A stretch of 53,735 nt of DNA from a bacterium. Its GTDB lineage: Bacteria; Babelota; Babeliae; Babelales; RVW-14. The notes under the pieces are model-generated. The model saw nothing but the letters and a program-made list of their open reading frames with translations, ran no database searches and was not told where the DNA came from. Location of the stretch: NCBI GenBank assembly GCA_023249935.1, contig JAHFBQ010000001.1, positions 1 through 53,735 of the forward strand. Reading direction: 5' to 3'. Below, piece after piece: positions 1 through 20,166 of the stretch (positions within the stretch are counted from its first letter, which is position 1; each line of letters begins with the position of its first letter). Position numbers and translations under genes: made by a program.

Positions 1-2
1 AT

Positions 3-245
3 CGTTATTTCAAAAAATGGGAAGGTATCTACTACGATCTGAAAGAGCACAACATTGGGTTCTGGGAACAAAAAACGTTTGTTGATCCAACCAATACAGG
101 GGCTAAATTTGAACGGTTACATGAAGCTGTGGTTGAAGCTAATCCTAGGTTGACCAAGCCACCGACGGTCATGTATAAAGTTGCGCAACGCTGTAAATGG
201 AAGTACGAGTCTGCCAAGCGCAAGTGGCAGCTTTTCTGGAAGTAG
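3..245 (+). CDS. 3' end of a gene cut by the window edge; hypothetical protein
   Basis: Frame 3 is open from the first base to TAG at 243-245 (...RYFKKWEGIYYDLKEHNIGFWEQKTFVDPTNTGAKFERLHEAVVEANPRL...KRKWQLFWK*). It is absent from the ORF track only because there is no start codon in the window. No family recognised. Confidence 0.45.
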   Translation, partial: RYFKKWEGIYYDLKEHNIGFWEQKTFVDPTNTGAKFERLHEAVVEANPRLTKPPTVMYKVAQRCKWKYESAKRKWQLFWK

Positions 246-306
246 ATCCTCCTGCGATATTTTTCATACAAAAGTTAAAACTTGCTTTAGTGGCATGCTT
301 TCGATA

Positions 307-349
307 GATTATGACAAATTGCGAATCTGATTCGCAATTTGTCATAATC
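307..349. repeat. Perfect 43-bp palindrome (21-bp arms, single central T): GATTATGACAAATTGCGAATC-T-GATTCGCAATTTGTCATAATC
   Basis: Read directly from the sequence. It lies between the stop at 245 and the ATPase start at 381. No T-run follows it. A promoter-like pair, TTGCGA (319-324) / 18 nt / CATAAT (343-348), sits inside it. Confidence 0.9.
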
Positions 350-380
350 TGCTGTGGTTGTCGATTTAATGGGAGTTTAT

Positions 381-1556
381 ATGGAAATTAAGCGAAAATT
401 AACTGAGCAAGTTATCAGTGCCGCCACCCAGTTTCCTGTAGTGGCTATTGTTGGGCCTCGTCAATCGGGTAAAACTACGCTGGCTCAAGCGATTTTTCGT
501 GAGCATCGTTATGTTTCCTTAGAAGATTTTGATGTTCGTGAACTTGCTACTACAGATCCCAGAGGTTTTTTAAATGATTACCCTTCGCAAACAGGGATTA
601 TTCTTGATGAGATTCAGCATGTACCAAAGCTGCTTTCATATATACAAACAATAGTTGATCGAGAAAAGAAAAAGGGATTTTTTATTCTAACGGGATCGCA
701 GAATTTTTTGGTTAATGAAGCAATTACGCAGACACTTGCAGGTCGCATTGCCATATTTACGTTATTACCTTTATCCTTGGCTGAGCTTGAACAGGCATCA
801 TTTTTGCCGAATAGCATTGAAAGCTTAATTTTTGCAGGGTCTTTTCCTCAAATGTATGCAGAAAAAATTCAAGCCTCGCGACTCTATGGCAATTACATAC
901 ATACATATGTAGAACGAGATGTACGACAAATAAAAAATGTTCAAGACTTAAATCTTTTTCAAACATTTCTTCGTTTGTGTGCGGGTAGAATTGGGCAGAT
1001 TGTTAATCTTTCGTCATTAGGAAACGACTGCGGTATTGATCATTCAACGGTGCAGTCTTGGTTATCTCTTCTAGAGGCTAGTTATATCATTTTTAGGTTA
1101 TATCCTTATTACAAAAATTTTGGTCGTCGCCTGGTTAAATCGCCAAAGATTTATTTTGTTGATACAGGTATTGCCTGTTGGCTTTTAAACATTAAATCTG
1201 AAGAGGATCTCTTGCAACATTATTTGCGTGGAGGATTAGTAGAATCATTTATTATTACAGATCTTCTTAAGCAAAAGTACAATCTTGATCAACAACCCAA
1301 TCTTTATTTTTGGCGGGATCAAATTGGTAATGAGATTGATTGTATTATTGATGAGTATCCTCATCCAATTCCAGTAGAAATTAAGTCTGGTAAAACAGTA
1401 TCAAGTTGGTTTTTTAAAGAGTTATTGGCGTGGCAAACAACAACCAATGCTCCTGAGGGCAATCCGTGTTATCTTGTGTATGGAGGGGAAGAGACTCAAA
1501 ATTGGCCTCAAGCAAAAGTATTAGGATGGAAATCAGCTGCTCATCTTATCAAGTGA
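381..1556 (+). CDS. AAA+ ATPase of the AAA_14/DUF4143 (COG1373-like) type
   Basis: Walker A GPRQSGKTTLAQ, Walker B-like IILDEIQ, and a C-terminal DUF4143-like part (YFVDTGI...WRDQIGNEIDCII). ATG 381 is preferred over GTG 354 because GGGAG lies about 6 nt upstream. Confidence 0.8.
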   Translation: MEIKRKLTEQVISAATQFPVVAIVGPRQSGKTTLAQAIFREHRYVSLEDFDVRELATTDPRGFLNDYPSQTGIILDEIQHVPKLLSYIQTIVDREKKKGFFILTGSQNFLVNEAITQTLAGRIAIFTLLPLSLAELEQASFLPNSIESLIFAGSFPQMYAEKIQASRLYGNYIHTYVERDVRQIKNVQDLNLFQTFLRLCAGRIGQIVNLSSLGNDCGIDHSTVQSWLSLLEASYIIFRLYPYYKNFGRRLVKSPKIYFVDTGIACWLLNIKSEEDLLQHYLRGGLVESFIITDLLKQKYNLDQQPNLYFWRDQIGNEIDCIIDEYPHPIPVEIKSGKTVSSWFFKELLAWQTTTNAPEGNPCYLVYGGEETQNWPQAKVLGWKSAAHLIK

Positions 1557-3309
1557 AAATGTATCCTCCAATTACATCAAACGATTTTGTTTCATAGTTC
1601 CAATTGATAAATAATGGGTGTTGTTGCCAGATTGTATCATCAACAGTGAGATGTATTTTGGTAGCATCACCTATTGTGTTTTTTTCTAAGACAACAAGTG
1701 AACCAAGTTTTTGGCTGCGTTGAGCATCTGTAGTTTCGAAGATGAATTTTTTATCATTAGACGACTGAAAACTGAAGCCCTGCGTAATTGGTGATACTGT
1801 TACGTAATTTTTTTCATAGTATGGAGCTACAGCATTAAACCAACGTCCAGGCTTGACAATATTGCTGTCTTGCTGTGTCATTGCGAGTGCAAGATCAAAA
1901 TAAACTGGATAATCACGATTGTTAAATATGATCCAAAATATCTGCGGGTTGAAACCAAAGCCATCACTTGGGATGGTTAAAAAGCAGAGAGGTCGGTGAG
2001 TGACTTGGGGATCTGCGCAGAGATTAACGACTGCTTGGTGCATGGTATGTAGTTTTTGTTCGCGAGCCTGGAATGAAGTGAAGGTGAGAAGGCCTAAGGC
2101 GGCGATGAAAATAGAGATGGCAAGCTTTAGGTATTGTTTGATTGGAATGTTACTCTTTACAAAAAGTGTTGCAAATCCAGCAATAAAAAACGGCAACGCT
2201 TCATATATGTAGCGTGGGCTATAAAAGCTTATGATGCCTGGCCAGAGCATAAGTATGCCGCAAGTAAAAAATGCTATGACCAATAATTTTTGGCGGTTGC
2301 GAATAAAAGCATAACCGAGCAATGTAAGCATGGGAGCGAGGAGTACAACCTTAAGTACTCTGTTGCCCCATGGTAGCCAAGAAACAAACAAGAGATCATA
2401 AAAAAACACCAAAAATTCTTGAAATTTTATTGCTATAAACGAGCCTTTAGTTGCATACGGAAAAAGCATGCCATTCGTGGCGACTTTAGCCAAAGGGTAC
2501 AGCCAAAGCCGTATGCCAAGAAATGCTACTGCTACTATGCTAAACAGCGATGTAATGGTTATGATTTGCTGCCAGTTGATGGAAATTTTGCAGGCGATAC
2601 TACGTGCTAGCAAGAGAATGCCGACTACTGCTGGCAGGATTAGAGTGGTTTCTCGGGTGAGTAATGAGAGTGCATAGAAAATTAAGGCAAGGAATAGTGC
2701 AAACTGGATCCCCGCCTGCGCGGGGAAGACGAAAGAAGAGAACTTGATGGCAGATAGTTTTGTTCTATCAAGATAATGAAGCAATGCAAGCGCTATGCAG
2801 AGTATAAGTACCACATTGATGTAGTAATGAAAATTAACTACGGCTCCAAACCGGTAGGCAATTTGTGGGTGTAACGCGAAGAGGAGGGCGCCTAATGTTG
2901 CCGTCCAGCGACTGACATAGCGGGAAAAAAGATAAAATAGTAAACCGGTTGCTATTGCGTGTGCAGTAACATTACATAAAAAATATCCGTAACCGTTAGT
3001 GCCAAAGAGCCAGAATTGTAGTGTGAGGTAGATGCAATAAAGCGGGCGATAGTAAGCGTCTAAAAAGTCTGGTCTGCTAAGCACATACCCACCAGGAACA
3101 CCGACACCTTGATTGGTGTGGCCATCATTAAAAAAATATAAAAGATCAGACCAAGTTTTTGTTTTGAAGCCCAGAAAAATGCCGTGAAAATCATCACCGG
3201 TAAACCACCAATTGGTAAAGGGAATGCCAAAGATGAGCAGGATTCCGGCGGCAATGATGATTGCGATGATCTTAGTATTAATTGAGTTGCTCAAAGGTGC
3301 CTTGTTCAT
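1549..3309 (-). CDS. GT-C-fold membrane glycosyltransferase-like protein, PMT/TMTC-like paralog (long form with C-terminal soluble domain)
   Basis: 586-aa multi-pass membrane protein. After the first helix comes the acidic loop motif WWFTGDDFHG, followed by YYRPLY...FGTNGYGYF...AH, LTRETT and SPRYIYEALPFF. The C-terminal domain ends INWNYETKSF. AGGATGGA precedes ATG 3309. Confidence 0.7.
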   Translation of the reverse strand: MNKAPLSNSINTKIIAIIIAAGILLIFGIPFTNWWFTGDDFHGIFLGFKTKTWSDLLYFFNDGHTNQGVGVPGGYVLSRPDFLDAYYRPLYCIYLTLQFWLFGTNGYGYFLCNVTAHAIATGLLFYLFSRYVSRWTATLGALLFALHPQIAYRFGAVVNFHYYINVVLILCIALALLHYLDRTKLSAIKFSSFVFPAQAGIQFALFLALIFYALSLLTRETTLILPAVVGILLLARSIACKISINWQQIITITSLFSIVAVAFLGIRLWLYPLAKVATNGMLFPYATKGSFIAIKFQEFLVFFYDLLFVSWLPWGNRVLKVVLLAPMLTLLGYAFIRNRQKLLVIAFFTCGILMLWPGIISFYSPRYIYEALPFFIAGFATLFVKSNIPIKQYLKLAISIFIAALGLLTFTSFQAREQKLHTMHQAVVNLCADPQVTHRPLCFLTIPSDGFGFNPQIFWIIFNNRDYPVYFDLALAMTQQDSNIVKPGRWFNAVAPYYEKNYVTVSPITQGFSFQSSNDKKFIFETTDAQRSQKLGSLVVLEKNTIGDATKIHLTVDDTIWQQHPLFINWNYETKSFDVIGGYIFT

Positions 3310-4999
3310 GCTTCCATCCTAATAATAGTATTTTGTCATCCCAGCCTCCGAGCTGGGATCCTCCATCTAGATGAATCTTAAATGCCAGGATCTTTTTGCC
3401 AACGTGCTCAGTAATTTCTACTTTGCCAAGGGAATTATTCATAAGATCATCTTCGTCAAACCATAAACTGTCAGGAGATATAGTTTGTATGGTGAGAACA
3501 TCTTCTTCGCGTCTAAAATCTAGCGATTTGATGCGAAGAAGATCCTGTCCTAAAAAGCTTTTGAATAAGTTGGCTATAGAGACATTATTACCGATGGCGG
3601 CTTGAGGTGGGAGTTCGTGGTGATATTCATTAGTACGTGCACTCATGATAACTGGAGCGCTACAGTTACCAGTGCCTAACATAGGAATGGGGATTCCGAG
3701 AGTAATTAATTTCTTGTTAGATGTATGCGAAAGATTGGCAAGATTTTGATATACAAGCATTTCTTTGTGGTTATAGGTGCACCATAGGGCCATGGTTTTT
3801 ACGGTTATTAGGCCTTGAATCAATACAAAAAACCCAAGAGAAAGCAGTATCATGCCGCGACGGCGACCGTTTGTTATAAATGGATGCAGCAATATGGCTA
3901 AAAGAATTGCTAAAAAAAATGTTGGCAGATAGAGGTAACGGCTGCTATGGAAAAATACAAGCGAAGGCCAACTGAGCAGTAAGATACAACTACATAAAAA
4001 CATGAGTATGAGTCGGCGATGTGGATAACTTCTTTGCCAAACTATAAAGATCGTTCCTCCAATCAGAATAAGAATTATAAATTTGAGAATAGTAAAGCCA
4101 GATGGGATCCATTTAATGCCAATGAGATCAAAAAAGTAGGTAAGTAAATCGTAAAATTTATTGCGTAAAAATAAGCCTGTTGGTTCAGCTGGCTTGAATC
4201 CTTTGATGCCTATTCTTGTTATATGAGAACTGAGTGGGTATGCCCAGCAGCGTAAAAGTGTGTATAAAATAGGTGGTATGATCATATATGGAGAGTATTT
4301 TAGTAAAAAATCTTTGAAGTGGAGTTTTTGATCATTAATTTGTGAGAGCACAAACCATCCAAGTATTACGAGTAGTGGTAAGAATATTAATGTTTCTCTT
4401 AGCAGCAGTGCTAGCAAAAATGTTGTGCTTGCTGATACAAGCCATCTCGTTTGGCGTCTTCTATAAAAGAGATAGATAAAAAAACATATTAGTACAAGAA
4501 AACATCCCTCAAGACTATTTTGAATATAACATTGCCAGAAAAAATAATCTTTCAGGCTCGAATGAAAAGCAAAAAATAAGCTACATAGGGCTGCTAGCGA
4601 GGGGATTGTTAAATAAGCTAAAACGTTAAAAAGTACAAGCGTTGTGATTGTGTGAAAGCCAACGTGTATCAAATGAGTCACATAAGGGTTGAGTCCAAAC
4701 GCTTTGAACTCAGCTCCCATAATCAACAAAAGCAAGGGGCGATAGATTACCTCTAAGCAAGAGGGGCGTCCTAGAGGATAAAGATTTTCTTCTGAAAAGC
4801 AGGCGCTGTGCATGATATCGCCATGCTTAAAGATTCTTTTAATATCTGAGGTGCTCTTGCATTGTCCATGTCTTATCAGCCCATAATCGTCAGCATGAAA
4901 TCCTATTTCTCTGAATTGAGCTCCTAATAAGTAAAACACTAGAAGTCCAATTACCAGATTTAAAAATAATTTTTTTAGTGATGGGGCATTGATAGGCAT
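3278..4999 (-). CDS. GT-C-fold membrane glycosyltransferase-like protein, PMT/TMTC-like paralog
   Basis: 573 aa. Motifs GFHADDYG, IYRPLLLL...FGLNPY..HLIH, FFWQCYIQNSLEG, LLRETL, DLIGIKWIPSGF and SRYLYLP. AAGGA lies 8 nt before ATG 4999. The 3' end overlaps the next gene by 32 nt. Confidence 0.7.
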   Translation of the reverse strand: MPINAPSLKKLFLNLVIGLLVFYLLGAQFREIGFHADDYGLIRHGQCKSTSDIKRIFKHGDIMHSACFSEENLYPLGRPSCLEVIYRPLLLLIMGAEFKAFGLNPYVTHLIHVGFHTITTLVLFNVLAYLTIPSLAALCSLFFAFHSSLKDYFFWQCYIQNSLEGCFLVLICFFIYLFYRRRQTRWLVSASTTFLLALLLRETLIFLPLLVILGWFVLSQINDQKLHFKDFLLKYSPYMIIPPILYTLLRCWAYPLSSHITRIGIKGFKPAEPTGLFLRNKFYDLLTYFFDLIGIKWIPSGFTILKFIILILIGGTIFIVWQRSYPHRRLILMFLCSCILLLSWPSLVFFHSSRYLYLPTFFLAILLAILLHPFITNGRRRGMILLSLGFFVLIQGLITVKTMALWCTYNHKEMLVYQNLANLSHTSNKKLITLGIPIPMLGTGNCSAPVIMSARTNEYHHELPPQAAIGNNVSIANLFKSFLGQDLLRIKSLDFRREEDVLTIQTISPDSLWFDEDDLMNNSLGKVEITEHVGKKILAFKIHLDGGSQLGGWDDKILLLGWKHEQGTFEQLN

Positions 5000-6417
5000 T
5001 TGGTGGTCCTTGTATGTGCTAGCGAATCTTTTATTCCATATAGTTTAAGAGCAGATCGATAACCAACGTTGGGGACAATTTTTGAAGAACTATGGATGGG
5101 AGAAATTCCTGCATGGATGGATTTTACATCAGCTTCTATCCCAACTGTTTCAAGGGCTGAGTAATGTACCCATTTGCTGAGTGCTTTGTTGGTAATAACG
5201 CCTTGCAAAAATACATATACTAGGCCGCAGCTCAAAAATAACCATTTCCATTGTTTGGCTGTATTTGCCATGAATAATGGTTTTACCAGTAACCCTATTA
5301 ACAGGGCGAGAAGTATTACTGGCAAATAGATATAGCGGCTACAATGAACGAAAAACGATGGCCAACATAAAATTAAAATTGAAAAACTAAGCAATACAAG
5401 TAATCCTTTGTAGGGATTATTTCTCCAGAGCAAAACTATGCCGCTAATGAGTAGTGCTATGATTGTAAGTTTTAAGCACAGAGATAATGTTGAACCATTA
5501 GGTAACCATTTGAGTCCGATTAGATCAAAAAAACAGGTAAGTAGGTCGAAAAATTTGTCCTTAAAACTAACTGTTGTTTTTGTGACTGAAAAAATACCGA
5601 GCGAGGCAATTTGGGTGGTTAGAGGATATGCCCAAAGACGCAGTGCAAGGTAACTTATAACTGGTATAGAGAAAAGGGATCCAGCAAAGAAGCATTCGTT
5701 CAATCGTTGTTGCCATTTTTCCTTCGAAAAAAGCAGAATAGCGATGATTGGTATAGCTGGGAATATTACAAGCGTTTCTCTTAGGCAGAGACCGAAAAAC
5801 AACATTATATTTGCAAGAATAAATAATTGTTTATGCATTGGTCGCCGAGCTAGCCACCAACATAAAAGTGTAAGTACAATGAGAAACAATAAACCCTGTA
5901 GGCTATTTTGTACATAGCATTGCCAGAAAAAATATTCTTTAAGGCTTGTGTGCAAACCAAAAAATAAAGCAGCAACTAAGCCACTCCAGGGATGTACTAA
6001 GATTGCTAAAGTATTAAAAATTATGAGGCTATTAATTGTATGTAAGGCAGTGTGGATGAGATGAAATTTGTATGGTTTGAGTCCAAAAAATTTGTAATGG
6101 GTTCCCATTACTAGTACGAGCAGGGGACGATAAATAACCTCTAAAAAACTTAATCTTGGTGTATGCTTCTCATCGAGTGGTTCGTTTGATGCGAGTATGC
6201 AGTCACCATTTTTTACGACACGAATAACATCTCCAATTGAATTATACTTGCCGTTATACATCATGCCGTAATCATCATCGTGGAAACCAATTGAGGTATG
6301 TTGCAGTCCCATAACTAAAAAAATAATAAAGCCTACGAGGATATTCATTGCCAGGAGCAATTTTTTATTAGGTAGGGCAATGATTGTAGAAGGGAATAAA
6401 TTGCTAAGTTTAATCAT
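4975..6417 (-). CDS. GT-C-fold membrane glycosyltransferase-like protein, PMT/TMTC-like paralog (short C-terminus)
   Basis: 480 aa. Motifs GFHDDDYG, IYRPLLVLVMG, FFWQCYVQNSLQG, CLRETL, DLIGLKWLPNGS and SRYIYLP. Its ATG overlaps the upstream stop as ATGA (6414-6417). Confidence 0.7.
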   Translation of the reverse strand: MIKLSNLFPSTIIALPNKKLLLAMNILVGFIIFLVMGLQHTSIGFHDDDYGMMYNGKYNSIGDVIRVVKNGDCILASNEPLDEKHTPRLSFLEVIYRPLLVLVMGTHYKFFGLKPYKFHLIHTALHTINSLIIFNTLAILVHPWSGLVAALFFGLHTSLKEYFFWQCYVQNSLQGLLFLIVLTLLCWWLARRPMHKQLFILANIMLFFGLCLRETLVIFPAIPIIAILLFSKEKWQQRLNECFFAGSLFSIPVISYLALRLWAYPLTTQIASLGIFSVTKTTVSFKDKFFDLLTCFFDLIGLKWLPNGSTLSLCLKLTIIALLISGIVLLWRNNPYKGLLVLLSFSILILCWPSFFVHCSRYIYLPVILLALLIGLLVKPLFMANTAKQWKWLFLSCGLVYVFLQGVITNKALSKWVHYSALETVGIEADVKSIHAGISPIHSSSKIVPNVGYRSALKLYGIKDSLAHTRTTKCLSMPHH

Positions 6418-7712
6418 TGGCTTAACTTTCTATACAGGCTTACTCCTAGTGGTGATCCTATGCCATCAGCAATCTGTTCTTGCTCTAGGTGTGTTCGAGC
6501 AACCCATACTTGCATTCTTTGATTGGTAACAACTCCTTGGACTGTTGCATAGAGTATAAATACCGCAAAAAATAAATATTTTGATCGTTGAGTTAGATTT
6601 GAGCTTAAAAAGCCAATTAGCAGCGCAAAACAGAGTGTTGGTAGGTATAAATAGCGGCTGCAATGACAAAGTAATAATGATGGCCAGCTGAGGAGGATGA
6701 GTCCGCAGGTGAGTACTGCAAGATAGTTTTTATAAGCATTTTGTCTCCACGTGCTGACTACAAAAATTCCAAGTGCTACCAATGCAGAAAGTTTGATTAA
6801 GGTATATCCCTTAGGTAACCAATGGAGACCAATCATATCCATAAACCAGGCAACCCAGTCGAAAAACTTGAGATTTATGGTTTGCAATAAGCTGTGATTG
6901 TTTTGGGTGAAGTTTTTTATACCAATGCATTGAACTGAGGTTGAAAATGGGTGTGCCCATAGACGGAGCCCCATGTAGGCGGCGATGGGAATGAGGAAGA
7001 GAACGGTGGATTTGAAGACTTGTTTTAAGTTTCGTTCCTCAAAAAACACGAATAATCCAACAAGAACTGGTAACACAATCAATGTTTCTCGAAGTAGCAG
7101 CGTGATAAAAAAAAGAACTAAGAAACCAATCAAGGTCGGTATCCATCGTCGTCGATACCATAACAAAAAAAATAATACCATGATACAAAGAAGTCCTGTC
7201 TCAAGGCTATTTTGAACATAGCATTGCCAAAAGAAATAATCTTTTAAATTGGTGTGTAATCCCCAGAAAAGAGACAGGGGTATGGCACAGAGTGGGCCGC
7301 TATACATTGTTACTACATTGAGAATAGTAAGTGTGGTGATTGTGTGCAGGGTTGTATGTACTAAGTGAAAGTAATAGGCATTCATACCAAAAAATTTATA
7401 TTCGGTGCCCATGATGAGCAAAACAAGTGGGCGATAGAGTGTTTCAAGAAAATTTTTCTTCTCAACCGTCTCCTTGTCAAGCATGGTTCCGGCGCAGGTG
7501 ATCATGTCGCTGTTGCTGAAAATAGCTTTTATGTCGTGTAAAGAGTTATAACGACCATTGTAAGTGAATCCATAATCATCAGCATGGAACCCAATATTTG
7601 TATGCTTGGCTCCCATGAAATAAAAAACTATGCTCGCAACAATGAGATTAGCGAGGAGAAGTAATATTCTATTAAGGGACTTGCTTTCGCCCGAGTATTT
7701 TAAATTTTGCAT
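6414..7712 (-). CDS. GT-C-fold membrane glycosyltransferase-like protein, PMT/TMTC-like paralog (short C-terminus)
   Basis: Motifs GFHADDYG, LYRPLVLLIMG, FFWQCYVQNSLETG, LLRETL, DMIGLHWLPKGY and SRYLYLP. The start is uncertain (ATG 7712 or 7742). Either choice overlaps the upstream gene end at 7672. Confidence 0.65.
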   Translation of the reverse strand: MQNLKYSGESKSLNRILLLLANLIVASIVFYFMGAKHTNIGFHADDYGFTYNGRYNSLHDIKAIFSNSDMITCAGTMLDKETVEKKNFLETLYRPLVLLIMGTEYKFFGMNAYYFHLVHTTLHTITTLTILNVVTMYSGPLCAIPLSLFWGLHTNLKDYFFWQCYVQNSLETGLLCIMVLFFLLWYRRRWIPTLIGFLVLFFITLLLRETLIVLPVLVGLFVFFEERNLKQVFKSTVLFLIPIAAYMGLRLWAHPFSTSVQCIGIKNFTQNNHSLLQTINLKFFDWVAWFMDMIGLHWLPKGYTLIKLSALVALGIFVVSTWRQNAYKNYLAVLTCGLILLSWPSLLLCHCSRYLYLPTLCFALLIGFLSSNLTQRSKYLFFAVFILYATVQGVVTNQRMQVWVARTHLEQEQIADGIGSPLGVSLYRKLSQ

Positions 7713-9318
7713 GAGCGTAATCCCAAGTAATGAACCATACATTGTTACTGAAACGTTCTATGTCTACAGCTGTAGCGTTTTTTTTCTCGCAATGAAGCAA
7801 TTCTAATTCCTGTGCGTTGCTTAGTTCAATTGTTATGCTATTGTTGTGTATCATTTGTATTACAGCGGTTTTATCTGAACGAGGAATTGCGCGCGCGTGA
7901 TCCTGTCGAGGCATTCTTATTGCCGGACCAGATTGATATACAAAATATGATTCGACAGGTTTGTCATCCAAAAACCAGACAGCTTGCGCGGTTCCCATAT
8001 CGAACCAATGAGTTGGAAGACCTATAAAACAGAGCGGTTCACGTTGCCAGCCAGCTTCAGGGAGATCTTGAGTTACTAAGGTGCGTGTGCTTGTATCAAG
8101 CCAATGTAAGGCGAATTCACGTTCTTTCATATTGGCAAAAACATAGCAGGCGTTAGTTGCAATGTAGAAGAGAGTGAGAACACAAAACAAGTTTTTCTTT
8201 GAGGAGATACCCTGTAGAAGTAGTATCAGTGTAACGATTATCCACGGTAGTGCCATGTACATGTATCGTTGCTGATAATGCATAAGTAGTCCAGGCCAAC
8301 TGAACATGATGGTTGAAATAAAACAGAAGAGAATCATTTTTTTGTGTTTGCTTTTGAAAAATAAAATAGCAAGTACTATGATAATGACGAACAGCAGGCA
8401 GCCGTTGGCGATGCGATGGCCCTTTGGCAACCAGGTAAGGCCAAGAATGTCATAGAGGTAGGTAAGAAACTGCATGCTGCGGGAAATCTGTTTTGTGATA
8501 AATGATTGCCATGAGAGTGTGAATCCCAAAGTGGTTGTATTGCTTGCGACAAAAGGCATACAGTCAAGTCGAATCAAGCAGTAGCCAAGTGCTGTAAAGA
8601 TAAAACCTAACGATGCTTTGCATGCTAGCCACAAAGAGTTACGTGTAATTTTATTGGTATACACAAGTGTTGCTAAAAACACCCAAGCACACAAAATGAT
8701 ACTTGCCTCTTTGAGGAGTAGATTGAGGAAAAAAAGCGCTATTGTGCCCAGGTACCAGTGCAACCGCCGCGTCTGTAGCCATCGATAAAAGCAGATAAAA
8801 ATGAGTCCTAGAAAAAAAAGTTCTATAAAATAGGTCTGTGCGCTGATCCAACCAAGCCAGTTTTGCAAACTTGGGTGGAATCCGAAAAACAATGCTGCAA
8901 GTAACGATGCTGTAATGTCAAAAAAGTTGCGCATAATTAAAAAAAATAGTCCGGTATTGAGTGCGTGCAAAATAATGGTAACTAAAAAATAACCATACGC
9001 TTGAGTGCCAAAAAGTAAGGTTTGTGGCCAGTAGTATACAAACGATAGAGGGCGATAGAGGCCCTGTAAAAAAGAACCTCGATCTTGGCCAGATCCTGAA
9101 GGATGATTGATGCTCTCCATATTGCCTTCGGTAAACAAATTTTTTAGATCAGCAAAACTTTGAAGTTTGCTATGTAAAATATTTGCCCAATCATCTGTCT
9201 TGAAACCCCATTTAGTGAATGGGATGCCGAGAATCAGAATTATAGTAGCAATAATTAGAAGAGATATAATCCAATCTTGTTGCCGATCATTTTTTAAGAT
9301 ATGCATAGTGATTTCCAT
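7672..9318 (-). CDS. GT-C-fold membrane glycosyltransferase-like protein, PMT/TMTC-like paralog (long form)
   Basis: 548 aa. Motifs WGFKTDDWANI, LYRPLSF...FGTQAYGYF...LHALN, LLKEAS, DILGLTWLPKGH and QQRYMYMALPW. The C-terminal soluble domain ends FITWDYAHAKFKIL. Confidence 0.7.
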   Translation of the reverse strand: MEITMHILKNDRQQDWIISLLIIATIILILGIPFTKWGFKTDDWANILHSKLQSFADLKNLFTEGNMESINHPSGSGQDRGSFLQGLYRPLSFVYYWPQTLLFGTQAYGYFLVTIILHALNTGLFFLIMRNFFDITASLLAALFFGFHPSLQNWLGWISAQTYFIELFFLGLIFICFYRWLQTRRLHWYLGTIALFFLNLLLKEASIILCAWVFLATLVYTNKITRNSLWLACKASLGFIFTALGYCLIRLDCMPFVASNTTTLGFTLSWQSFITKQISRSMQFLTYLYDILGLTWLPKGHRIANGCLLFVIIIVLAILFFKSKHKKMILFCFISTIMFSWPGLLMHYQQRYMYMALPWIIVTLILLLQGISSKKNLFCVLTLFYIATNACYVFANMKEREFALHWLDTSTRTLVTQDLPEAGWQREPLCFIGLPTHWFDMGTAQAVWFLDDKPVESYFVYQSGPAIRMPRQDHARAIPRSDKTAVIQMIHNNSITIELSNAQELELLHCEKKNATAVDIERFSNNVWFITWDYAHAKFKILGRKQVP

Positions 9319-10273
9319 GAAGATGTTGATTTGGCGTTACACCAACAAGCTCGTTAACGACAAACATTGGGCGGCGCTTTAATTCTTGAAATACTTTGCT
9401 TAGGTAGATGCCAAGTACACCAAGTGCCAAAAAGTTACAGGCAAACAAAAAAAGAATTGCCAGCATAAGCGATGTCCAACCAGTCATAACAACAAGTCCA
9501 AATATTTTCATGATAAGCGCTGTTAGGGCGCCAAGAATACACAGTGCAATAACTCCTAGTGCGCCAAATACGAGGATGTACATCGGTGCGGTAGAGAATG
9601 AGATTATATTTTCAAGCGCAAAAATAGTCAGTTTTGTGTAGTTATACTTTGATTCTCCAGTTGCTCGACTACGACGAATAAAAGGCACAGATTTTTTCGG
9701 TAGCCCAGACCAATAGATGAGGCCGCGGACAAATACTTGGTTTTCAGGGAGGAGCTTAAAAGTATCAATAGCGCGTTGGCTGAGTAAGCAAAAATCGCCA
9801 ACATTTCTTGGCATATCGATCTTGGTTAGTTTCTTGAACAGAGGATAGAAAAGGTTGGAGGTAAATTTTTTGAGCCAAGATTCATTGAGTCGTTTAGTGC
9901 GTTGGCCGAAGACGATATCATAGCCCTCGAGAAAATGTTTTTCGAAATCAATAATAAGGTCTGCTGGATCTTGTCTGTCAGCATCGATGAGTACTACCGC
10001 GTTGCCTCGAGCATGATGAATGCCAGCGTACGTTGCATTTTCATGTCCAAAATTTCTTATGAATGAAATAATTTTAACGCGGCTATCTCCAGCGGCTAAT
10101 TTTTTTAAAATATCGAGAGATCCGTCCCAGCTGCCGTCGTTAACAAAAATAAGCTCGGTGGTTGCAAAGTGCGACAACTTGCCGAGTACTGATGATAGTT
10201 CGGCGTATAACGGTAATAAATTGTGTTCTTCGTTGAGCAGTGGAATAACAATTGAAAGCAACGGTGCTTGCAT
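9287..10273 (-). CDS. GT2 polyprenyl-phosphate sugar synthase (GtrB/ArnC/DPM1-like)
   Basis: Motifs LSIVIPLLNEE, FVNDGSWDGS and IDADRQDP. Two C-terminal hydrophobic helices are present, as in bactoprenol-phosphate glycosyltransferases. A purine-rich RBS lies before ATG 10273. Confidence 0.8.
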   Translation of the reverse strand: MQAPLLSIVIPLLNEEHNLLPLYAELSSVLGKLSHFATTELIFVNDGSWDGSLDILKKLAAGDSRVKIISFIRNFGHENATYAGIHHARGNAVVLIDADRQDPADLIIDFEKHFLEGYDIVFGQRTKRLNESWLKKFTSNLFYPLFKKLTKIDMPRNVGDFCLLSQRAIDTFKLLPENQVFVRGLIYWSGLPKKSVPFIRRSRATGESKYNYTKLTIFALENIISFSTAPMYILVFGALGVIALCILGALTALIMKIFGLVVMTGWTSLMLAILFLFACNFLALGVLGIYLSKVFQELKRRPMFVVNELVGVTPNQHLHGNHYAYLKK

Positions 10274-10330
10274 AAAACTCTCTCTTTCTCAAGGCGGCGG
10301 CTACTCTCGAATCTAGTCTATGAGTGAATT

Positions 10331-11386
10331 TTATACAAGGAGAAGTATTGCCACTACGTTGAAAAAGAATGAAGCATAAATAGGAATGATGAGGCTTTTG
10401 ATGACACTGCGCACATCAGCCTCACCAGTATTTTCGTAAAGAAGTCCAAGTGTAGCCATAAAGGCTGGTAGTGATGTGTAGATAAATGCCGGGTGTATTT
10501 TAATAAAAATTTGGGGGAGAAGATAGGTTATTACGGCTAGTAATAGGAGGCCTGCTTGGCGGCGCTTGGTTGTATGTGCAATGAGTCCTATTAAACTTGA
10601 AGCCCAAAATAATAGAAACGCATAACGAAGCCATTGGTGTGAGCTAGGGATCCATTCAAGTCCTAGTAGTGCAACAAATGTGTCGTTGATGTTAAGCAGT
10701 GTAGCTACAACTGAGATGGAAATATTGCTGAGCACAACGGTCAATTGTGCAATAAGATAAGTAAGAAAAAGTAAGCAGCATTGATTTGTGGGTAGCGGCC
10801 AAAAATAAGCTGCAGCTAAAGTAAGTATTGCGCTACCAAGCCAAATGTTGATTGGTGTCCAACAAAGGATAGCAACGCTTAGAGCAATTAAGCGATACGT
10901 TGATGAGGGTGTTTTTGTACAAATAAATTTTGCAGCAATGATGCTGAGTAGTACTAGTGTGCATTCAAGAACTTGAGGGAAATACTCAACTTTTCCAAAC
11001 CAGCTTAAATGACTTGGATGAATACCACTATACCAGCATACCCAGAGCACCATGAGTTTAGAGAGGTATGGCCGGGCAATGTACAAAAAAAGAGCGATAT
11101 TAAGTGTATGTATGCCAATGACTAAAAAACTTGCTGGTAGGGATAAGGGGTCTTGTGCTAGGTTGAACCACGAGCTTACTGTGAGTAGAATTTGATCTTG
11201 AGAAAAAATTGCTGGTAAGTGAAGCGGCGGTTGTTTTTGAACAAGTAATGTCCAGAAAAGAAATACTGGTACCGTAGCGGCAATAAAAAGTAGCGTGACT
11301 GGTAATGCCTCGACTGAGTTGTATACAAAGTCAGAGCATTGAATCCAAGCTCTGAGAAACGTTTTTTTGACAGTTTTTTTATTCAT
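10331..11386 (-). CDS. Divergent, probably non-catalytic member of the same GT-C paralog family (membrane core only)
   Basis: 351-aa multi-pass protein. It keeps the family motif ALLGLEWIPSSH (compare DLIGIKWIPSGF). The first-loop DD motif is replaced by SQDQIL, the YRPL block is degenerate, and there is no C-terminal domain. Confidence 0.6.
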   Translation of the reverse strand: MNKKTVKKTFLRAWIQCSDFVYNSVEALPVTLLFIAATVPVFLFWTLLVQKQPPLHLPAIFSQDQILLTVSSWFNLAQDPLSLPASFLVIGIHTLNIALFLYIARPYLSKLMVLWVCWYSGIHPSHLSWFGKVEYFPQVLECTLVLLSIIAAKFICTKTPSSTYRLIALSVAILCWTPINIWLGSAILTLAAAYFWPLPTNQCCLLFLTYLIAQLTVVLSNISISVVATLLNINDTFVALLGLEWIPSSHQWLRYAFLLFWASSLIGLIAHTTKRRQAGLLLLAVITYLLPQIFIKIHPAFIYTSLPAFMATLGLLYENTGEADVRSVIKSLIIPIYASFFFNVVAILLLV

Positions 11387-11417
11387 ATGAGTACCCTAGC
11401 AATAAAAGTAGGAGCAG

Positions 11418-12122
11418 ATGAAGAAATTATCTATTGTTATCCCTTGCTATAATGAATCAAAGAGTATTCCATATTTACTGGAACAGTTTTCTGAAGGTAT
11501 TGGTACGCGAGATATCGAAGTAGTATTGGTTGATAATGGTTCTTTTGATGAAACACCTGCTGTGATTACTGCATTGCTGCCGCGGTACCAATTTGCCAAA
11601 ACAACTCGTGTAGAAAAAAACCAAGGATATGGGTTTGGGATTTTGAGTGGTCTGCGTGTTGGGACTGGAGATTTTTTGGGATGGATGCATGCTGATCTTC
11701 AATCTGATCCAAATGATGTGATGCGTGCCTATGACATCATTACCAAAAGTGCGCATGCGCAGCGACTTTTTGTAAAGGGTACACGTTCTGGCAGGCCACT
11801 ATTTGATCAATTTTTTACCTTGGGCATGAGTACTTTTGAAACTATGTATCTGCAAAAACCACTCTGGGACATTAACGCTCAGCCAAACATTTTCCATCGA
11901 AGCTTTTATGAGCGTTGGGATAATCCACCTCATGACTTTGCGCTTGATTTGTATGTGTATTGCATGGCAAAAAAGCTTGGGCTGCGTATGCAGCGGTTTC
12001 CCGTAGTTTTTGGTCCGCGTCAATTTGGGACTTCTTCATGGAACTCAGGGCTCAAAGGGCGATGGAAATTTATTACGCGGACATTCTCATTCTCGGCCGA
12101 TGTAAAGAAGCAGTTGAGGTAG
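11418..12122 (+). CDS. Soluble GT2-family glycosyltransferase (DPM1/GtrB-like catalytic domain without membrane anchor)
   Basis: Motifs LSIVIPCYNES, LVDNGSFDET and HADLQSDP. AGGAG lies 5 nt before ATG 11418. Confidence 0.75.
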   Translation: MKKLSIVIPCYNESKSIPYLLEQFSEGIGTRDIEVVLVDNGSFDETPAVITALLPRYQFAKTTRVEKNQGYGFGILSGLRVGTGDFLGWMHADLQSDPNDVMRAYDIITKSAHAQRLFVKGTRSGRPLFDQFFTLGMSTFETMYLQKPLWDINAQPNIFHRSFYERWDNPPHDFALDLYVYCMAKKLGLRMQRFPVVFGPRQFGTSSWNSGLKGRWKFITRTFSFSADVKKQLR

Positions 12123-13716
12123 GACCACTTTCCTTCGAATACGGGTGCCATGTGCACTTGTGGAAGAAGCTCTGCCAGTAATTAAAAGTTCTTAGATCAT
12201 TTGGTGTGCCCCAACAGACGTAAAAATCAACTTTGAAAACATAGACTTGTAACCCAAATTTTATGAGTTCTCCAGCAAGGCTATCAACGTAAAATTCGTT
12301 GTTAACACGAATATTGTTTTTATAGAGTGATTCAAGGCCAGCTTGAAAATAAGCAGCCTTTTTAAAATAAAAGGCGCCAACGATTGCATGATCGTTTTCT
12401 GGTGTATCTGAAATTGGTTTTTTTACAGAGACTGAGATTGCTTTGTTATTCGCATCCGTCGCAACCCAGCCATACATCTGTGGATTGATTTTGGCAGATG
12501 GGTGATTTTTAAATGTCCAAATGATCGCATCAACATCAGGTCTAGAGCGTAGAGCTGCGTATTTTTGAGCATCATACAGCATGCTGTTGTCGCAGGCGCC
12601 GATGGTGACAGGACTTTCTTGGTCAATATTTGCCAACCCAATGGCACAAGTACATGCTTGGCCTTCGGTGACGGCATTGATGCCAATGACCGAAGCTTGC
12701 GAATAGGTTTCGTTTAACGTTTGTTCTAGCGGTGATGCATCGAGGTGTTCTTGTAAGCAGACAAAGATTTGTTTTTCTGCTTGAGGCAGAGCGGCGGCAG
12801 CTTGCACGATCATTGGCTTACCGCTGACGGGAATGAGCGGCTTTGGCAATGAATATCCTTCATCACTAAAGCGTTTACCTCGGCCGGCTAGGGGGATTAG
12901 GTTGACGCTGTTTTTTTCTACCCCGCAACCGCCCTTTGTCATTCCACAAGTTATCTTTTCGCTCAATGCCCTAAAATAATCAGACCATGCTTGGTATTCC
13001 CGTAAGTCCTGAGGCGTGCCCCACTGAAGCATGTGTTCAATCTCATAAATCGAGACTGGCAAACCATCTTCAACGAGCAGATTGTATACAAGGCTGACGT
13101 AAAATTCACCGTTGATGCTTAGGTTGCGCTCCATTGCACGAGCAAAATATTTTTTAACAAGGCTGCCATGTGCAAAGTAGTAGGTACCATTGGAGGCATA
13201 CTCTTGCATGCGGTTATTAGTGAATGGTTCTTTTTCTTTAATTTGCTCGAGCCATTGGTCTGTATCTTTGATAAAGGCGTAGTTGGTGGTGCCAAGCATG
13301 TGTGGATGAAATCCTCGATACGATGGGATTGCTCCGGCGGCACCGCGGCTACGGGTATGATGTAAGAAATTCTGATAGTCCCAGTAGGTGCCAAAGTCGC
13401 AGTAATTAACGATGACTTCTTCTTGATCATCGATCAAATGTTGGACCTGTAGGGTTGCAAACACGGGCCCTTTTTTATGAGGAGGAATGCTGACTATGGT
13501 TCCTGAGGGGGCAATACGTTGTAAAATTTCACGCATTGCAGTTGTTTGTAAATGTTCTTCGTTGCAGATGAACGTAAATTTTTTTTCACCAGGAAAGAGG
13601 TTGACGACGTGTTCAATGATTGGCTTGCCATCAACGGGAATTAAAGGTTTTGGATCTTTATAGCCAGCAGCCTGAAAACGAGCACCAATGCCTGACATTG
13701 GAATGATGATGTGCAT
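12073..13716 (-). CDS. Tandem-duplicated sugar-phosphate nucleotidyltransferase-fold protein (two NTP_transferase-like halves)
   Basis: Two copies of the N-terminal signature: IIPMSGIGARFQAAGYKDPKPLIPVDGKPII and LIPLAGRGKRFSDEGYSLPKPLIPVSGKPMI. Each is followed by ...NGEFYV.../...NNEFYV... and WGTP.DL. GGAGAG precedes ATG 13716 (track start 13734). The 3' tail overlaps the convergent GT2 gene by 50 nt. Confidence 0.75.
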   Translation of the reverse strand: MHIIIPMSGIGARFQAAGYKDPKPLIPVDGKPIIEHVVNLFPGEKKFTFICNEEHLQTTAMREILQRIAPSGTIVSIPPHKKGPVFATLQVQHLIDDQEEVIVNYCDFGTYWDYQNFLHHTRSRGAAGAIPSYRGFHPHMLGTTNYAFIKDTDQWLEQIKEKEPFTNNRMQEYASNGTYYFAHGSLVKKYFARAMERNLSINGEFYVSLVYNLLVEDGLPVSIYEIEHMLQWGTPQDLREYQAWSDYFRALSEKITCGMTKGGCGVEKNSVNLIPLAGRGKRFSDEGYSLPKPLIPVSGKPMIVQAAAALPQAEKQIFVCLQEHLDASPLEQTLNETYSQASVIGINAVTEGQACTCAIGLANIDQESPVTIGACDNSMLYDAQKYAALRSRPDVDAIIWTFKNHPSAKINPQMYGWVATDANNKAISVSVKKPISDTPENDHAIVGAFYFKKAAYFQAGLESLYKNNIRVNNEFYVDSLAGELIKFGLQVYVFKVDFYVCWGTPNDLRTFNYWQSFFHKCTWHPYSKESGPTSTASLHRPRMRMSA

Positions 13717-13929
13717 TAATTCTCTCCATCTCAATGTGAAATTGCTTACTAACTGAAAGTTAGCAGGTTTTTCTAGGCATTCAAGTAGATTGTAATTGCT
13801 GAATATTTTGCCGGGTATATCTAAAACCCTTTACATCTGTAAAAGATGTGCAATCTTTGCTCTAGTAAAAAGAGGAAGGAGGCGCAGTGTGTTCTAAGAT
13901 GTAGTGCCATCATTAAAAAGCTTACTCAG

Positions 13930-16900
13930 ATGAAATATACTCGATATCTTCTGCTCATCGTTCTTCTTTTCAATAACAATCAAATGTATGCCGGGCTGGT
14001 TGCAGGAACTAACATTGCGACAAATGGTCAGTCAGTAGCAATAGAAAATCTTTTGCGAGGTGATTTTGTTGTTGGGTATGACTTAAAAACACAAGTGTAC
14101 CCTGTGATAGCGGTAACGGCTGTGCAGTTGCATAGGGCTGTGGTGACGTATGCGATTGCAACTGATCGTGGCGTAATTGTAGTGACAGCAGATCAATTAC
14201 TCTTCGATGTTGTTGGTAAAAAGTTTGTAACAGCTGATCAGTGGTCTACGATGTGTATCTTTTTGACTAAAGATATGCAGCAGCTGCCGACGCGAGAAAT
14301 AAAAATCGATAGTGCCGTTGCAGCAGATTGCTATGATGTATCGTTGGAGCAGCCATATCTTTTTTTTGCATCTGATGCGCAAGTTTTGATGCATAACAAT
14401 CCGCTTGTTCTAGCGGTTCCGCTGACGCTTGCAGCTGTTGAGCTGGCTCCTCAGCTTATAAACTTATGCATGATGCTTGAAAATGCTCACAGCAAAGCAG
14501 CGGTTGCTGTGCGAAGAGCGCAAGCGCTGACTCAGCCAGTAGTTCCAACGCCGATATTGTCCGAACAAGTTGCAAAACAGCCTGCGCAGCAAATGAGAAT
14601 AGTACAGGTTTCACAAGCTACATCTCAAAAAAATAATCAATCAATACCTCGTCATGAAGTGCAAGCGGTACAACCTATTCTTTCAGTTGCGAAATCATCA
14701 AAGAGTAATGAATTATTTGTTTCGCAGCCAACACAAGGCTACAAATTTTCAGATGAAGCTGTACAGCGGGCAAAGTCGATAGATGTAAAGCTCTTACAAA
14801 ATCCCATCATGTATAACGATCGTCATTCAGAAATAAGTGTAACTGGATCGATTAATGGAGATGTGGTCTGCTCTAATGAATCTCAATCGAGAGGATATCT
14901 TCATATCAACCTCAACACTGAGCGAAACAACGAACGAGTCCAGGAAGCGAGAGATCGAGATCGGTGGGCGAGAAGATCGGGCAAGAGGCTGATTATCAAA
15001 GGAAACCAACATTATTTTACACCGGCTTGGTTTCTTGAGAATGCTCAAGCTTTGGCCGAACAAACAGGAATGTCGCTAGATGACGTTCTGTTTACTAATT
15101 TTGAAAATTTTCAATACCCAAACTACTTGCAAGTGTTGCACCATCGGCGCAACTATGATCAAAAGATTCTGGAGCTGCGAGATTTGTTGAGACAGGAAGA
15201 AAAGGGGTGGTTTTCATCAACTACAGAAGGCAAAAAATTAAACAGAAGATTTTGCTCAGGAGAAGGATTTAAGTTTTTCCACGGCAGTGATGAGGTGAAG
15301 TTATCGGAGCTGATTGAACGGTTAGCAAAAAAAGTAGAAGCGAGGCAAGAAGATGAACATAAAAAATACCTCGCCTGGCAAGCAAAGCAGGCGGAAGAAG
15401 CAGAAGTTGCAAGGCAGCAGGCCTTGTTTGCAGAACGAATTGTACGAGCGAAAAGCTGCTACAATCGAGTAATTGCCGAGCAACAACTTGAGGTAGCGGC
15501 TCACAGCGGCTTGTATGAGAAGTACGAAGAAATTGTGGTTCATGGCAGATTATATCGCAGCATAGATGAACCTAAGGCATTTTCTCACGTGTTTAAATCT
15601 GTACAAAACAACGACTACAGCGAAAGCTACAAAAAGTTTTTAGCTGATCGAAACATGCCTATCTTGCGCCAGAGCAGGAATGATGCGGCCAAAGCAATTG
15701 ATGAAATCATTCGTGAAATGTATCAAGCAGATCAACATTTTGGTTATTTATACGATGTTGTTCATGCGCACAGCATCGCGCTTCGGCTAATTTCTGTTGC
15801 CGATCGAGCTGAGCAATACAACGACTCTCCTATGATGTCAGCAGCGACTGCGCAGCTGCTTGAAGCGGCGCGCGGATTTGTACGTTCTGCTGAGCAACTT
15901 GGTGAGTACTATGTGACAAGCAACATGGCCGCGCATCATACAACAACTACAATTAATCATCTGATTCATAAGGTGTTGATTCCGCTGGAAAGGCATGCTG
16001 CAACGGTTGCTGGCAATAAAGTATCGTTACCGCAAGAACTTGCACGCAGTACAGTATGCCCGGTAACAGTTTTAGCCAATCTGTACAAAAATCCTGAAAA
16101 CAAAGAGCTTGCTCAGCAGTGTAAAGCGGTACTGGCAGATCTTTTGGCAGAAGAAGAGTTTATTGTGCAAGCAGCAGCAAAGGGTAGCGTTCAAGTCCCA
16201 ACAGAAACGCCGCTTGTCAAACTTGCAACGCAAGCGGGAAACCTTGGCAGTTGTACGGCAGCACAAGCACCGCCATACATACCATCAGCAACCATGGCAC
16301 GGGGTCGTCAAAAAGAATTTTTCCGCAAGGTTTCCATATCTAGCAACCAGGGAGATCGAGAAGATATATCGCCAGAAGCTTTTGTGAATGGTGCGATCAT
16401 TGATTGTGCTCATAAGCATAAGGAGTCATTTGAGGATAAACGTCAAGCGGTTATCAGCGACATAAAAGAGTATGAAAAAACACTGTTTGATCTAACGCCG
16501 CGATCTGTGAGCATCGACGAAGCAGCGGCACAGCAATTGCAAAACCATGCCCCATCGTGGATAACGGCGACTATGACTGGTAACGGGCAAGTTGCCGTTG
16601 CCGCTCATTGCTATCGGCTCGCATCATACGATGCATCAACAAGAGCATGGCATTTTATTGTTGATGCAGATGAACCAGCCCTATATGATCGAATGGTTCC
16701 ATATGTTCATGAGTTTGTCAAAGCTGAAGAGAAACGCGAGCTTGATGAGCTGCGCAAACTCACAGCATTCTGGCCCCAAGAGATACGCTATGCATTCAAG
16801 ATCGGTTGGCCAGTGCGCAAAGATCAGCCACAAGAAAATTCGGGTAAAAGAATATGGCAAGCGCAAGCAGCGGGCATACGCCACGGGAACTTAGCAAGAA

Positions 16901-18023: not shown

Positions 18024-18058
18024 ATTAATAACTATCCAATAATTCATCTGCTATCAAA

Positions 18059-18694: not shown

Positions 18695-18727
18695 TATTGT
18701 TCATCTCATGAAAATGAAAAGGTTGTT

Positions 18728-20154: not shown

Positions 20155-20166
20155 GGGCGTCCTCCC

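Follow-up and report, generated by a model that had tools for sequence, protein, structure and literature searches.

Gene content of the array

The window analysed here, a stretch of 53,735 nucleotides (nt) on contig JAHFBQ010000001.1 from a bacterium of the Babelales, carries an array of genes for putative membrane-bound glycosyltransferases (GTs). Seven open reading frames (ORFs) are tightly packed on the minus strand between positions 1549 and 11386 and encode five paralogs of one GT-C family (A to E), a GtrB-like glycosyltransferase of family GT2 and a truncated paralog of 351 amino acids (aa). All seven were present where an original prediction, made from the sequence alone, had placed them (Table 1). 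Two more full-length members, G and H, complete the eight paralogs that it had counted.

The full-length copies A to E, G and H share 21-43% sequence identity (E = 1e-17 to 1e-103 in tblastn and blastp searches), which substantiates the proposed homology of the five consecutive minus-strand genes. B, C and D are closer to one another, with mutual identities of 40-43%. The residues F39, D42, D43, Y88, R89, P90 and H118 as well as H148, E204, R250, W341, P342, R351 and Y354 (numbering of paralog E) are invariant in all seven copies; the short paralog D retains the full set of catalytic residues. The motif blocks described in the original prediction are all present; the asparagine of its H..N block and the glycine of D..G..W.P.G are not universal. 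Its division into FFWQCY-containing short forms and long forms with a C-terminal domain is likewise real, with the exception of paralog B, an FFWQCY protein that is nevertheless long (573 aa) and has a degenerate C-terminal domain with GWKH instead of TWDY.

Among the longest ORFs, overlaps of the expected 4 to 71 nt were found from the GtrB-like gene to E (32 nt), from E to D (71 nt), D to C (4 nt, ATGA), C to B (25 nt) and B to A (32 nt). With the nearest alternative start codons the overlap persists at most junctions. The arrangement is consistent with one operon, and the overlaps suggest that the array genes may be translationally coupled. The overlap of 53 nt between G and H probably shrinks to none, since the public gene call starts H at codon 19. 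Scans for promoters and terminators at positions 1-14000 gave no enrichment over shuffled sequences and are therefore uninformative on operon structure. The window has a GC content of ~41%, and an Rfam scan detected no RNA genes in it. A gene for an AAA_14/DUF4143 ATPase (354-1556, plus strand) meets the end of the array in convergent orientation, its 3' end overlapping paralog A by 8 nt; the array of a related locus is also flanked by a homolog (L010, 234-1427).

Sequence classification of the GT-C paralogs

Paralog H exceeded the gathering threshold of the Pfam family PMT_2 (PF13231) with 36.6 bits against 26.1 bits. Paralog E remained just under it with 23.5 bits, and A, B, C, D and G had no match. 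A faint TMEM260-like match was obtained for paralog C (E = 0.025). In a set of 86 homologs no family other than PMT_2 was matched, and PF02366, MIR, DUF1736 and TPR domains were all absent. An exhaustive hidden Markov model (HMM) search of 1.84 billion cluster representatives returned ~247 full-length relatives at E ≤ 1e-30, which are nested within a superfamily of ~61,000 at E ≤ 1e-3. The first matches outside the family in a word-indexed search were TPR-bearing proteins with the JGI name 'protein O-mannosyl-transferase' (E = 1e-18 to 1e-5). Bacterial TPR-bearing TMTC-like proteins thus appear to be the nearest sequence outgroup, and together with the PMT_2 match of H and the lack of detectable TPRs this agrees with the proposed description of the paralogs as PMT/TMTC-like proteins without TPRs.

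The classification by HMM and CAZy-type models which the original prediction had recommended placed only H in PMT_2 and none of the paralogs in an established GT family. No paralog matched the GT39 domains PF02366 or MIR, and the acidic motif is DD, not DE. GT105 is characterized by DUF1736 and TPR domains, which none of the 86 members matched, though the layout with ~11 transmembrane (TM) segments, N-terminus inside and C-terminus outside is common to both. In the case of GT83, the ArnT model of NCBIfam was not matched, and the similarity to the ArnT structure 5F15 is structural alone. Judged by these searches, the family appears to be separate from GT39 and GT105 and almost unannotated in Pfam and NCBIfam. 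It is a GT-C family at the level of the fold and stands at the edge of the PMT_2 clan.

Predicted fold and topology

The structure of paralog E was modelled with AlphaFold2 on the basis of 128 sequences (predicted local distance difference test 94.3, predicted template modelling score 0.94). When the model was compared to the PDB with Foldseek, the top ~33 matches were all GT-C enzymes with a probability of ~1.0, among them PglB (E = 7e-6), STT3, AglB, ArnT (8e-4), Pmt4 (1.7e-3), AftA, DPY19, Pmt1/2, AftD and Emb. Transporters were listed only at E > 0.7 with probabilities ≤ 0.1. A transporter reading of the family was discarded on these grounds, and with it the placement that the original prediction had named as speaking against a GT-C assignment. 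A comparison with viral structures yielded only weak, uncharacterised matches.

The model of paralog E contains ~11 TM segments. Across the 86 homologs, the density of lysine and arginine was 0.206 in the predicted cytoplasmic loops versus 0.066 in the periplasmic loops. This positive-inside analysis places D42/D43, R89/P90, H148, E204, W341, R351 and Y354 on the periplasmic side and the C-terminal β-rich domain outside the cytoplasm as well, with a probably cytoplasmic N-terminus. The acidic pair is located 12 residues past TM1 (helix 12-30), where the first periplasmic loop begins; D42 is kept in 85 and D43 in 81 of the 86 members. The charge distribution hence agrees with the periplasmic acidic loop of the original prediction.

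The GtrB-like synthase

The GT2 encoded next to paralog E aligned with Synechocystis GtrB (5EKP) at E = 1.1e-72, residues 6-312 of the query covering residues 28-332 of the chain including the C-terminal helices. Its hydrophobic C-terminal segment comprises residues 217-295. This full-length homology to GtrB bears out the GtrB/ArnC-like GT2 with C-terminal helices that had been proposed. The best NCBIfam models were PgfS with 231 bits and ArnC with 122 bits.

The ArnC match, which extends to the ArnC entries of the PDB (E ~ 1e-29 to 1e-30), would be compatible with paralogs that act as ArnT-like, GT83-type modifiers of lipid A or core together with an ArnC-like synthase, all the more as 5F15 is one of the best structural matches of the E model (target-normalised TM-score 0.45). 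We nevertheless regard such a function as very improbable. The GT2 scores much higher with GtrB/PgfS than with ArnC (248 vs 109 bits), the ArnT model of NCBIfam found no match, and ArnA, ArnB and ArnD were not seen among the scanned ORFs of the window. The lineage has been reported to lack most genes for lipopolysaccharide (LPS) (PMC4776705, PMC6561590), and seven paralogs are hard to square with a single lipid A acceptor.

A conserved truncated paralog

The 351-aa ORF has no significant BLAST match to most paralogs. Profile methods confirmed its homology (hhalign probability 96.5%, E = 8e-10; hmmsearch 47.9 bits) and thereby the sixth, degenerate paralog that the original prediction had recognized upstream of the array. 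The protein is devoid of the DD loop and of the YRP motif, and it carries the substitutions E204 to P, R250 to Q, W341 to L and R351 to A. In two related loci it is kept at exactly 351 aa with 61-65% identity (L003, 922-1977; L009, 7849-8904). As length and identity are maintained despite the lost catalytic residues, we read the 351-aa paralog as a putative conserved pseudo-enzyme. In the window and in both related loci its gene is located between the GtrB-like gene and a small GT2 gene, directly adjoining the latter. The place beside the small GT2 is occupied by GtrA in cassettes of Vibrio and Clostridium, which are described below. The 351-aa paralog might serve as a non-catalytic partner or a donor escort.

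The divergent genes of the 351-aa paralog and the small GT2 are separated by only 31 nt (11387-11417). This leaves little room for two promoters, and therefore the true starts or promoters may be located inside the coding regions. A Babeliales relative (L006) has a methyltransferase-like gene between the small GT2 and GtrB genes, at the position of the 351-aa paralog in the window.

Conservation of the array in Dependentiae

A pattern scan of GTDB genomes with a tight alignment of E-type sequences yielded 12 loci, while a scan with a single protein as query detected no relatives. An exact look-up of the paralog E sequence in public assemblies yielded no entry. The specific labels among these loci are Candidatus Babeliales, Candidatus Dependentiae and candidate division TM6; the labels of several loci are unspecific ('bacterium', 'uncultured Pseudomonadota' and the like). 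Named homologs outside the 12 loci are Dependentiae, too. The closest locus (L009) is 70% identical. These relatives, metagenome-assembled genomes (MAGs) of Dependentiae, TM6 and Babeliales, fit the host-dependent bacterium that had been supposed. Dependentiae are widespread obligate parasites of protists. Small genomes of 1.0-1.5 Mb (PMC4776705) and a degenerate envelope have been reported for them, with most LPS genes missing in Babeliales (PMC4776705, PMC6561590). No word that starts with 'glycosyl' occurs in either of these genomic studies, and a literature search on Dependentiae and glycosyltransferases found no prior description.

In local HMM searches, each of the 12 loci proved to hold a tandem array of 2-4 paralogs. 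A GtrB-like GT2 was found in seven of them and adjoins the array in six; arrays with a GtrB-like GT2 were also seen in metagenomic relatives. In a neighbour-joining tree the paralogs fall into ortholog classes that are common to several genomes. The E-type (WGFKTDD) follows directly after GtrB in the window as well as in L006, L007, L009 and L011, and orthologs of the A-type (WWFxGDDF) stand after the E-type gene in other MAGs. Paralog G has orthologs in L002 and L003, paralog H in L001-L004. For the clade of B, C and D no close orthologs were present among the fetched loci, and it may represent a lineage-specific expansion. Since the classes are shared between genomes, the multiplicity of paralogs is ancient and typical of the lineage. 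It is not peculiar to this genome, and the window holds the largest set. The murE gene (27898-29331, minus strand) adjoins a paralog of the family in the window, in L001-L004 and in L011 and is ~8 kb off in L017; this neighbourhood may reflect mere synteny or point to a connection with peptidoglycan.

Duplicates that are redundant or decaying, or multi-pass proteins with a role other than glycosyl transfer, for instance in transport, would be consistent with the loss of catalytic residues in the 351-aa copy and with the scores of most copies under the Pfam thresholds. Such an explanation appears barely credible, given that every family-invariant residue is kept in the seven full-length copies at 21-43% identity, that ortholog classes are conserved across genomes and that even the dead copy is maintained at identical length with 61-65% identity. 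The structural matches are confined to GT-C enzymes, with transporters at E > 0.7. The retention of the copies in small genomes furthermore argues for selection.

Proposed function and acceptors

The array is likely a Gtr/Pgf-type system for glycosylation outside the cytoplasm, which operates with a lipid-linked sugar and unusually many transferases. In a first step, on the cytoplasmic side of the membrane, the GtrB-like GT2 would use a nucleotide sugar to attach a hexose to polyprenyl phosphate. UDP-glucose, UDP-galactose or GDP-mannose are plausible precursors because a GalE and a ManC-like protein are encoded in the window. A flippase would then move the lipid-linked sugar across the membrane, and the seven GT-C paralogs with retained catalytic residues would transfer it in the periplasm. 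A polyprenyl-phosphate-linked sugar as donor is suggested by the genomic context, namely the overlap of the GtrB homolog with the first paralog and the adjoining GtrB-like gene in half of the 12 GTDB loci. As the paralog classes are ancient, they probably serve different acceptors, form different linkages or act successively on a growing chain.

Several results weigh against this interpretation. PMT_2 was reached at E ≤ 1e-3 by only 7 of the 86 family members, and a profile of the seven-paralog alignment retrieved nothing from the PDB sequences. The TM-scores of the E model to solved GT-C structures were just 0.40-0.49, with no single family clearly closest. The C-terminal periplasmic domain is without detectable relatives: a profile of this 'TWDY' domain found nothing among PDB sequences, and the domain therefore gives no clue to the acceptor. 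Queries with GtrA of Vibrio and Clostridium had no tblastn match in the window or in the Dependentiae loci. A scan of the window for small ORFs with multiple TM segments produced an ABC permease as the one candidate and no recognisable flippase. The original prediction had already noted the lack of a GtrA-like ORF. The three components of a Gtr system, GtrA with GtrB and a GT-C, are hence not assembled in the window, and the flippase gene may lie in another part of the genome. Finally, the neighbours of the arrays in distant MAGs, namely a methyltransferase, a DegT-type aminotransferase and cytoplasmic GTs, would suit a glycan acceptor no less than a protein acceptor.

We favour envelope or secreted proteins as acceptors since the nearest relatives of the paralogs are TMTC-like, the GT2 is PgfS-like and the lineage is poor in LPS. 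In streptococci, pairs of GtrB/PgfS and GT-C proteins O-glycosylate Ser/Thr-rich envelope proteins (PMC12041528). There is also experimental precedent for the three-component modification of glycans (PMC11127046), and a polysaccharide or glycolipid acceptor is a serious rival to proteins. The paralogs would then build or decorate a non-protein envelope glycan, each forming one linkage, which is possible, if on balance somewhat doubtful. Several GT-Cs per donor synthase are also a trait of the mycobacterial machinery for arabinan and mannan (PMC11127046), and the distant arrays are surrounded by soluble GT2 and other GTs, a DegT aminotransferase, a methyltransferase and GalE. In Vibrio coralliilyticus the cassette that neighbours the array in the window is part of an O-antigen/capsule-type locus. 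The long forms bear an extra periplasmic β-rich domain, like GT136, Emb and AftD with their carbohydrate-binding modules (CBMs); in the array family, however, this domain has no detectable CBM similarity. The reported lack of most LPS genes in Babeliales (PMC4776705, PMC6561590) also argues against a glycan acceptor, as do the nearest sequence relatives, which are TMTC-like and act on proteins. Moreover, no Wzx/Wzy, no ABC-type polysaccharide exporter and no initiating phosphoglycosyltransferase were noticed in the window.

Comparison with known systems

The type of mechanism is familiar, whereas the scale, the lineage and the linked phosphoribulokinase (PRK) cassette were unexpected. Gtr systems for O-antigen glucosylation (GtrA, GtrB and a GT-C Gtr protein) share with the array the GtrB homolog beside GT-Cs with a periplasmic catalytic loop and the logic of a lipid-linked monosaccharide donor. 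They differ in having GtrA and one GT-C, in contrast to seven or eight GT-Cs of another sequence family per locus. The O-antigen is an unlikely acceptor here due to the reported lack of most LPS genes in the host lineage.

The streptococcal Pgf and GtrB/PgtC2 systems (PMC12041528) likewise combine a synthase with more than one GT-C, and PgfS was the best NCBIfam match of the GT2. Their acceptors are extracytoplasmic Ser/Thr-rich regions of envelope proteins, the same class that is favoured for the array. PgfM1/M2 and PgtC2, however, are members of the YfhO family and not PMT_2-like, they come from Gram-positive organisms with two GT-Cs as compared with eight in the window, and the operon of the window includes no PgfE-type epimerase.

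With TMTC1-4 (GT105), TMEM260 and PMT (GT39) the paralogs have the GT-C fold in common. The TMTC layout of 11 TM segments, an N-terminus inside, a C-terminal domain outside and a functional loop between TM7 and TM8 (PMC7801869) is mirrored by ~11 segments in the same orientation, an acidic pair that opens the first outside loop and a conserved helical TM7-TM8 loop. The array family differs by the absence of TPR, DUF1736, PF02366 and MIR domains, by DD in place of the DE of PMT and by its own C-terminal β-rich 'TWDY' domain, which the short forms do without.

ArnC and ArnT (GT83) also pair a polyprenyl-phosphate sugar synthase with a GT-C protein, of the GT-C(A) type, and ArnT was among the structural matches (E = 8e-4). 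The synthase of the array is nearer to GtrB, Arn pathway genes and ArnT model matches are missing, and lipid A is improbable as acceptor. The mycobacterial enzymes EmbA/B/C, AftA-D, PimE and MptA/B and the sets ALG3/9/12 and ALG6/8/10 of the lumen of the endoplasmic reticulum are comparable in that many paralogous GT-Cs act sequentially with one or two lipid-linked monosaccharide donors on the far side of the membrane from the cytoplasm. AftA, AftD and Emb matched the E model; these sets belong to other GT families, and the relationship exists at the level of the fold only. GT136 (Kelly et al. 2024, PMC11127046) is another GT-C family, defined recently, whose members carry a periplasmic substrate-binding domain at the C-terminus; it was found through its genomic context beside a lipid-donor synthase. 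Its donor originates from phosphoribosyl pyrophosphate via a polyprenyl phosphoribose synthase, the flippase is of the MATE type, and neither GtrB nor a paralog array is involved.

New in the present locus are an undescribed GT-C family with its own C-terminal domain, ancient multi-paralog arrays, a conserved dead paralog and their occurrence in an intracellular lineage with reduced genomes. A private and diversified GT-C family beside GtrB suggests that extracytoplasmic glycosylation is central to the surface biology of Dependentiae and possibly to host interaction. Characterised families of this kind have founded new CAZy families, as GT136 illustrates (PMC11127046), and biochemical characterisation of the paralogs would probably do likewise. 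Pseudo-enzyme partners of GT-Cs could be studied with the conserved dead paralog as an example.

Table 1 Glycosylation-related features of the window
Feature	Position	Strand	Length (aa)	Remarks
Paralog E	7672-9318	-	548	E-type (WGFKTDDW); first GT-C after GtrB; long form, C-terminal periplasmic β-rich domain ending ITWDY
Paralog D	6414-7742	-	442	FFWQCY subfamily; short form without C-terminal domain
Paralog C	4975-6417	-	480	FFWQCY subfamily; short form
Paralog B	3278-4999	-	573	FFWQCY subfamily; divergent C-terminal domain (GWKH)
Paralog A	1549-3309	-	586	A-type (WWFTGDDF); long form ending INWNY
Paralog G	24624-26285	+	553	Long form
Paralog H	26233-27897	+	554, probably 536	Long form
GtrB-like GT2, putative polyprenyl-phosphate sugar synthase	9287-10273	-	328	Overlaps paralog E by 32 nt
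Truncated paralog	10331-11386	-	351	~8 TM segments
Small soluble GT2	11418-12122	+	234	ArnC/DPMS type
Double nucleotidyltransferase	12073-13734	-	553	Two fused NTP-transferases, separate genes in the Clostridium cassette
Class II aldolase-family protein	20746-21843	-	365	Cassette member
HAD phosphatase	21840-22547	-	235
GT87/ALG3-like GT-C fused to phosphoribulokinase-like domain	22537-24684	-	715	GT-C ~1-417, kinase-like domain ~420-715
Third glycosylation cluster	37182-46944	+		GalE, GT-Cs, FAD/NAD oxidoreductase, amidotransferase, ManC-like protein

The cassette with a GT-C-phosphoribulokinase-like fusion

Between the array and the paralogs G and H the window contains a second group of genes, which the original prediction had not connected to the array; nor had it linked the array to three further PMT_2-type GT-Cs downstream. 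Its central component is a 715-aa fusion of a membrane domain and a PRK-like domain. In comparison with the family profile by hhalign the fusion was rejected as a member of the paralog family. Foldseek results for the fusion were dominated by the kinase domain, and the GT-C status of the membrane domain rests on the Pfam matches of its homologs: in 66 of these the non-kinase matches were exclusively to GT-C families (GT87 in ten, ALG3 in six, ALG6/8 and PMT_2 in one each). The C-terminal domain aligned with complete PRKs over ~305 columns at TM-scores of 0.73-0.78, whereas uridine kinases cover ~185 columns, and it scored 202 bits with an NCBIfam PRK subfamily (cutoff 236). The domain is predicted to face the cytoplasm. 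One homolog of 918 aa (P0291) has a HAD protein fused to the kinase. The best NCBIfam model of the HAD phosphatase was the haloarchaeal ribulose-1,5-bisphosphate 5-phosphatase with 164 bits, under the equivalog cutoff. In haloarchaea this phosphatase works together with a class II ribulose-1-phosphate aldolase (PMC9700705).

The same cassette was found in Vibrio coralliilyticus (CP120719.1; L018, 10001-17126) and on a metagenome contig (L019, 7339-14522) encoding a protein attributed to Clostridium butyricum by NCBI and UniRef. The cassette comprises the PRK-GT-C fusion, the HAD and aldolase proteins, one or more NTP-transferases, GtrA, a GT2 of ~235 aa and a protein of ~201 aa. The small GT2 of the window is 54-56% identical to the GT2 beside GtrA in these cassettes; GtrA and the gene of the ~201-aa protein were not found in the window. 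By eye the ~201-aa protein looks GDPD-like, and the Babeliales relative L006 keeps this protein, which the window lacks; its gene and the methyltransferase-like gene named above are found at L006 6748-7374 and 8102-8935. None of the large membrane proteins in the cassettes of Vibrio and Clostridium was matched by the HMM of the array family. A literature search on phosphoribulokinase and GtrA found no description of the cassette.

The gene content suggests that the cassette may provide a lipid-linked donor derived from ribulose-1-phosphate. Shared with glycan loci of Vibrio and Clostridium, it points to an undescribed route of sugar activation that is testable in cultivable bacteria. A more far-reaching interpretation, which we consider unlikely, combines the cassette and the array into an island that builds a surface glycoprotein or glycan coat stepwise, in the manner of the lumen of the endoplasmic reticulum, as a replacement of LPS and O-antigen. 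The ancient paralog classes could then be successive, linkage-specific transferases that use lipid-linked monosaccharides, and the conserved dead 351-aa paralog could either escort or scramble the donor in the role of GtrA or act as a regulatory partner. The cassette with the PRK fusion could add a ribulose-1-phosphate-derived unit, which has not been described in any glycan.

Wider context of the window

In the loci L002-L004 the paralogs G and H are flanked by the membrane-kinase fusion, HAD, class II aldolase and double NTP-transferase genes on one side and by murE and hisS on the other. In L003 the GtrB-like GT2, the 351-aa paralog and the small GT2 directly adjoin this block. Because the locus is contiguous in L003, the region 13846-20724 of the window looks like an insertion that splits one locus. 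It contains a gene for a 1292-aa protein without Pfam or NCBIfam match, two small ORFs, a metallo-β-lactamase-fold protein and a RecT-family protein and may be a mobile or phage-derived element. Weak similarity to the 1292-aa protein (E = 1e-14) was seen for one of the small ORFs (18128-18694).

The third glycosylation cluster encodes, besides GalE, two PMT_2-type GT-Cs of 509 and 460 aa, a FAD/NAD oxidoreductase of the PRK07208 family, an amidotransferase of the asparagine-synthase type, a third GT-C (PMT_2/PMT, 443 aa) and a ManC-like mannose-1-phosphate guanylyltransferase. Its GT-Cs stand outside the paralog family. In all, the 12 GT-C-like genes cover 34% of the 53.7-kb window.

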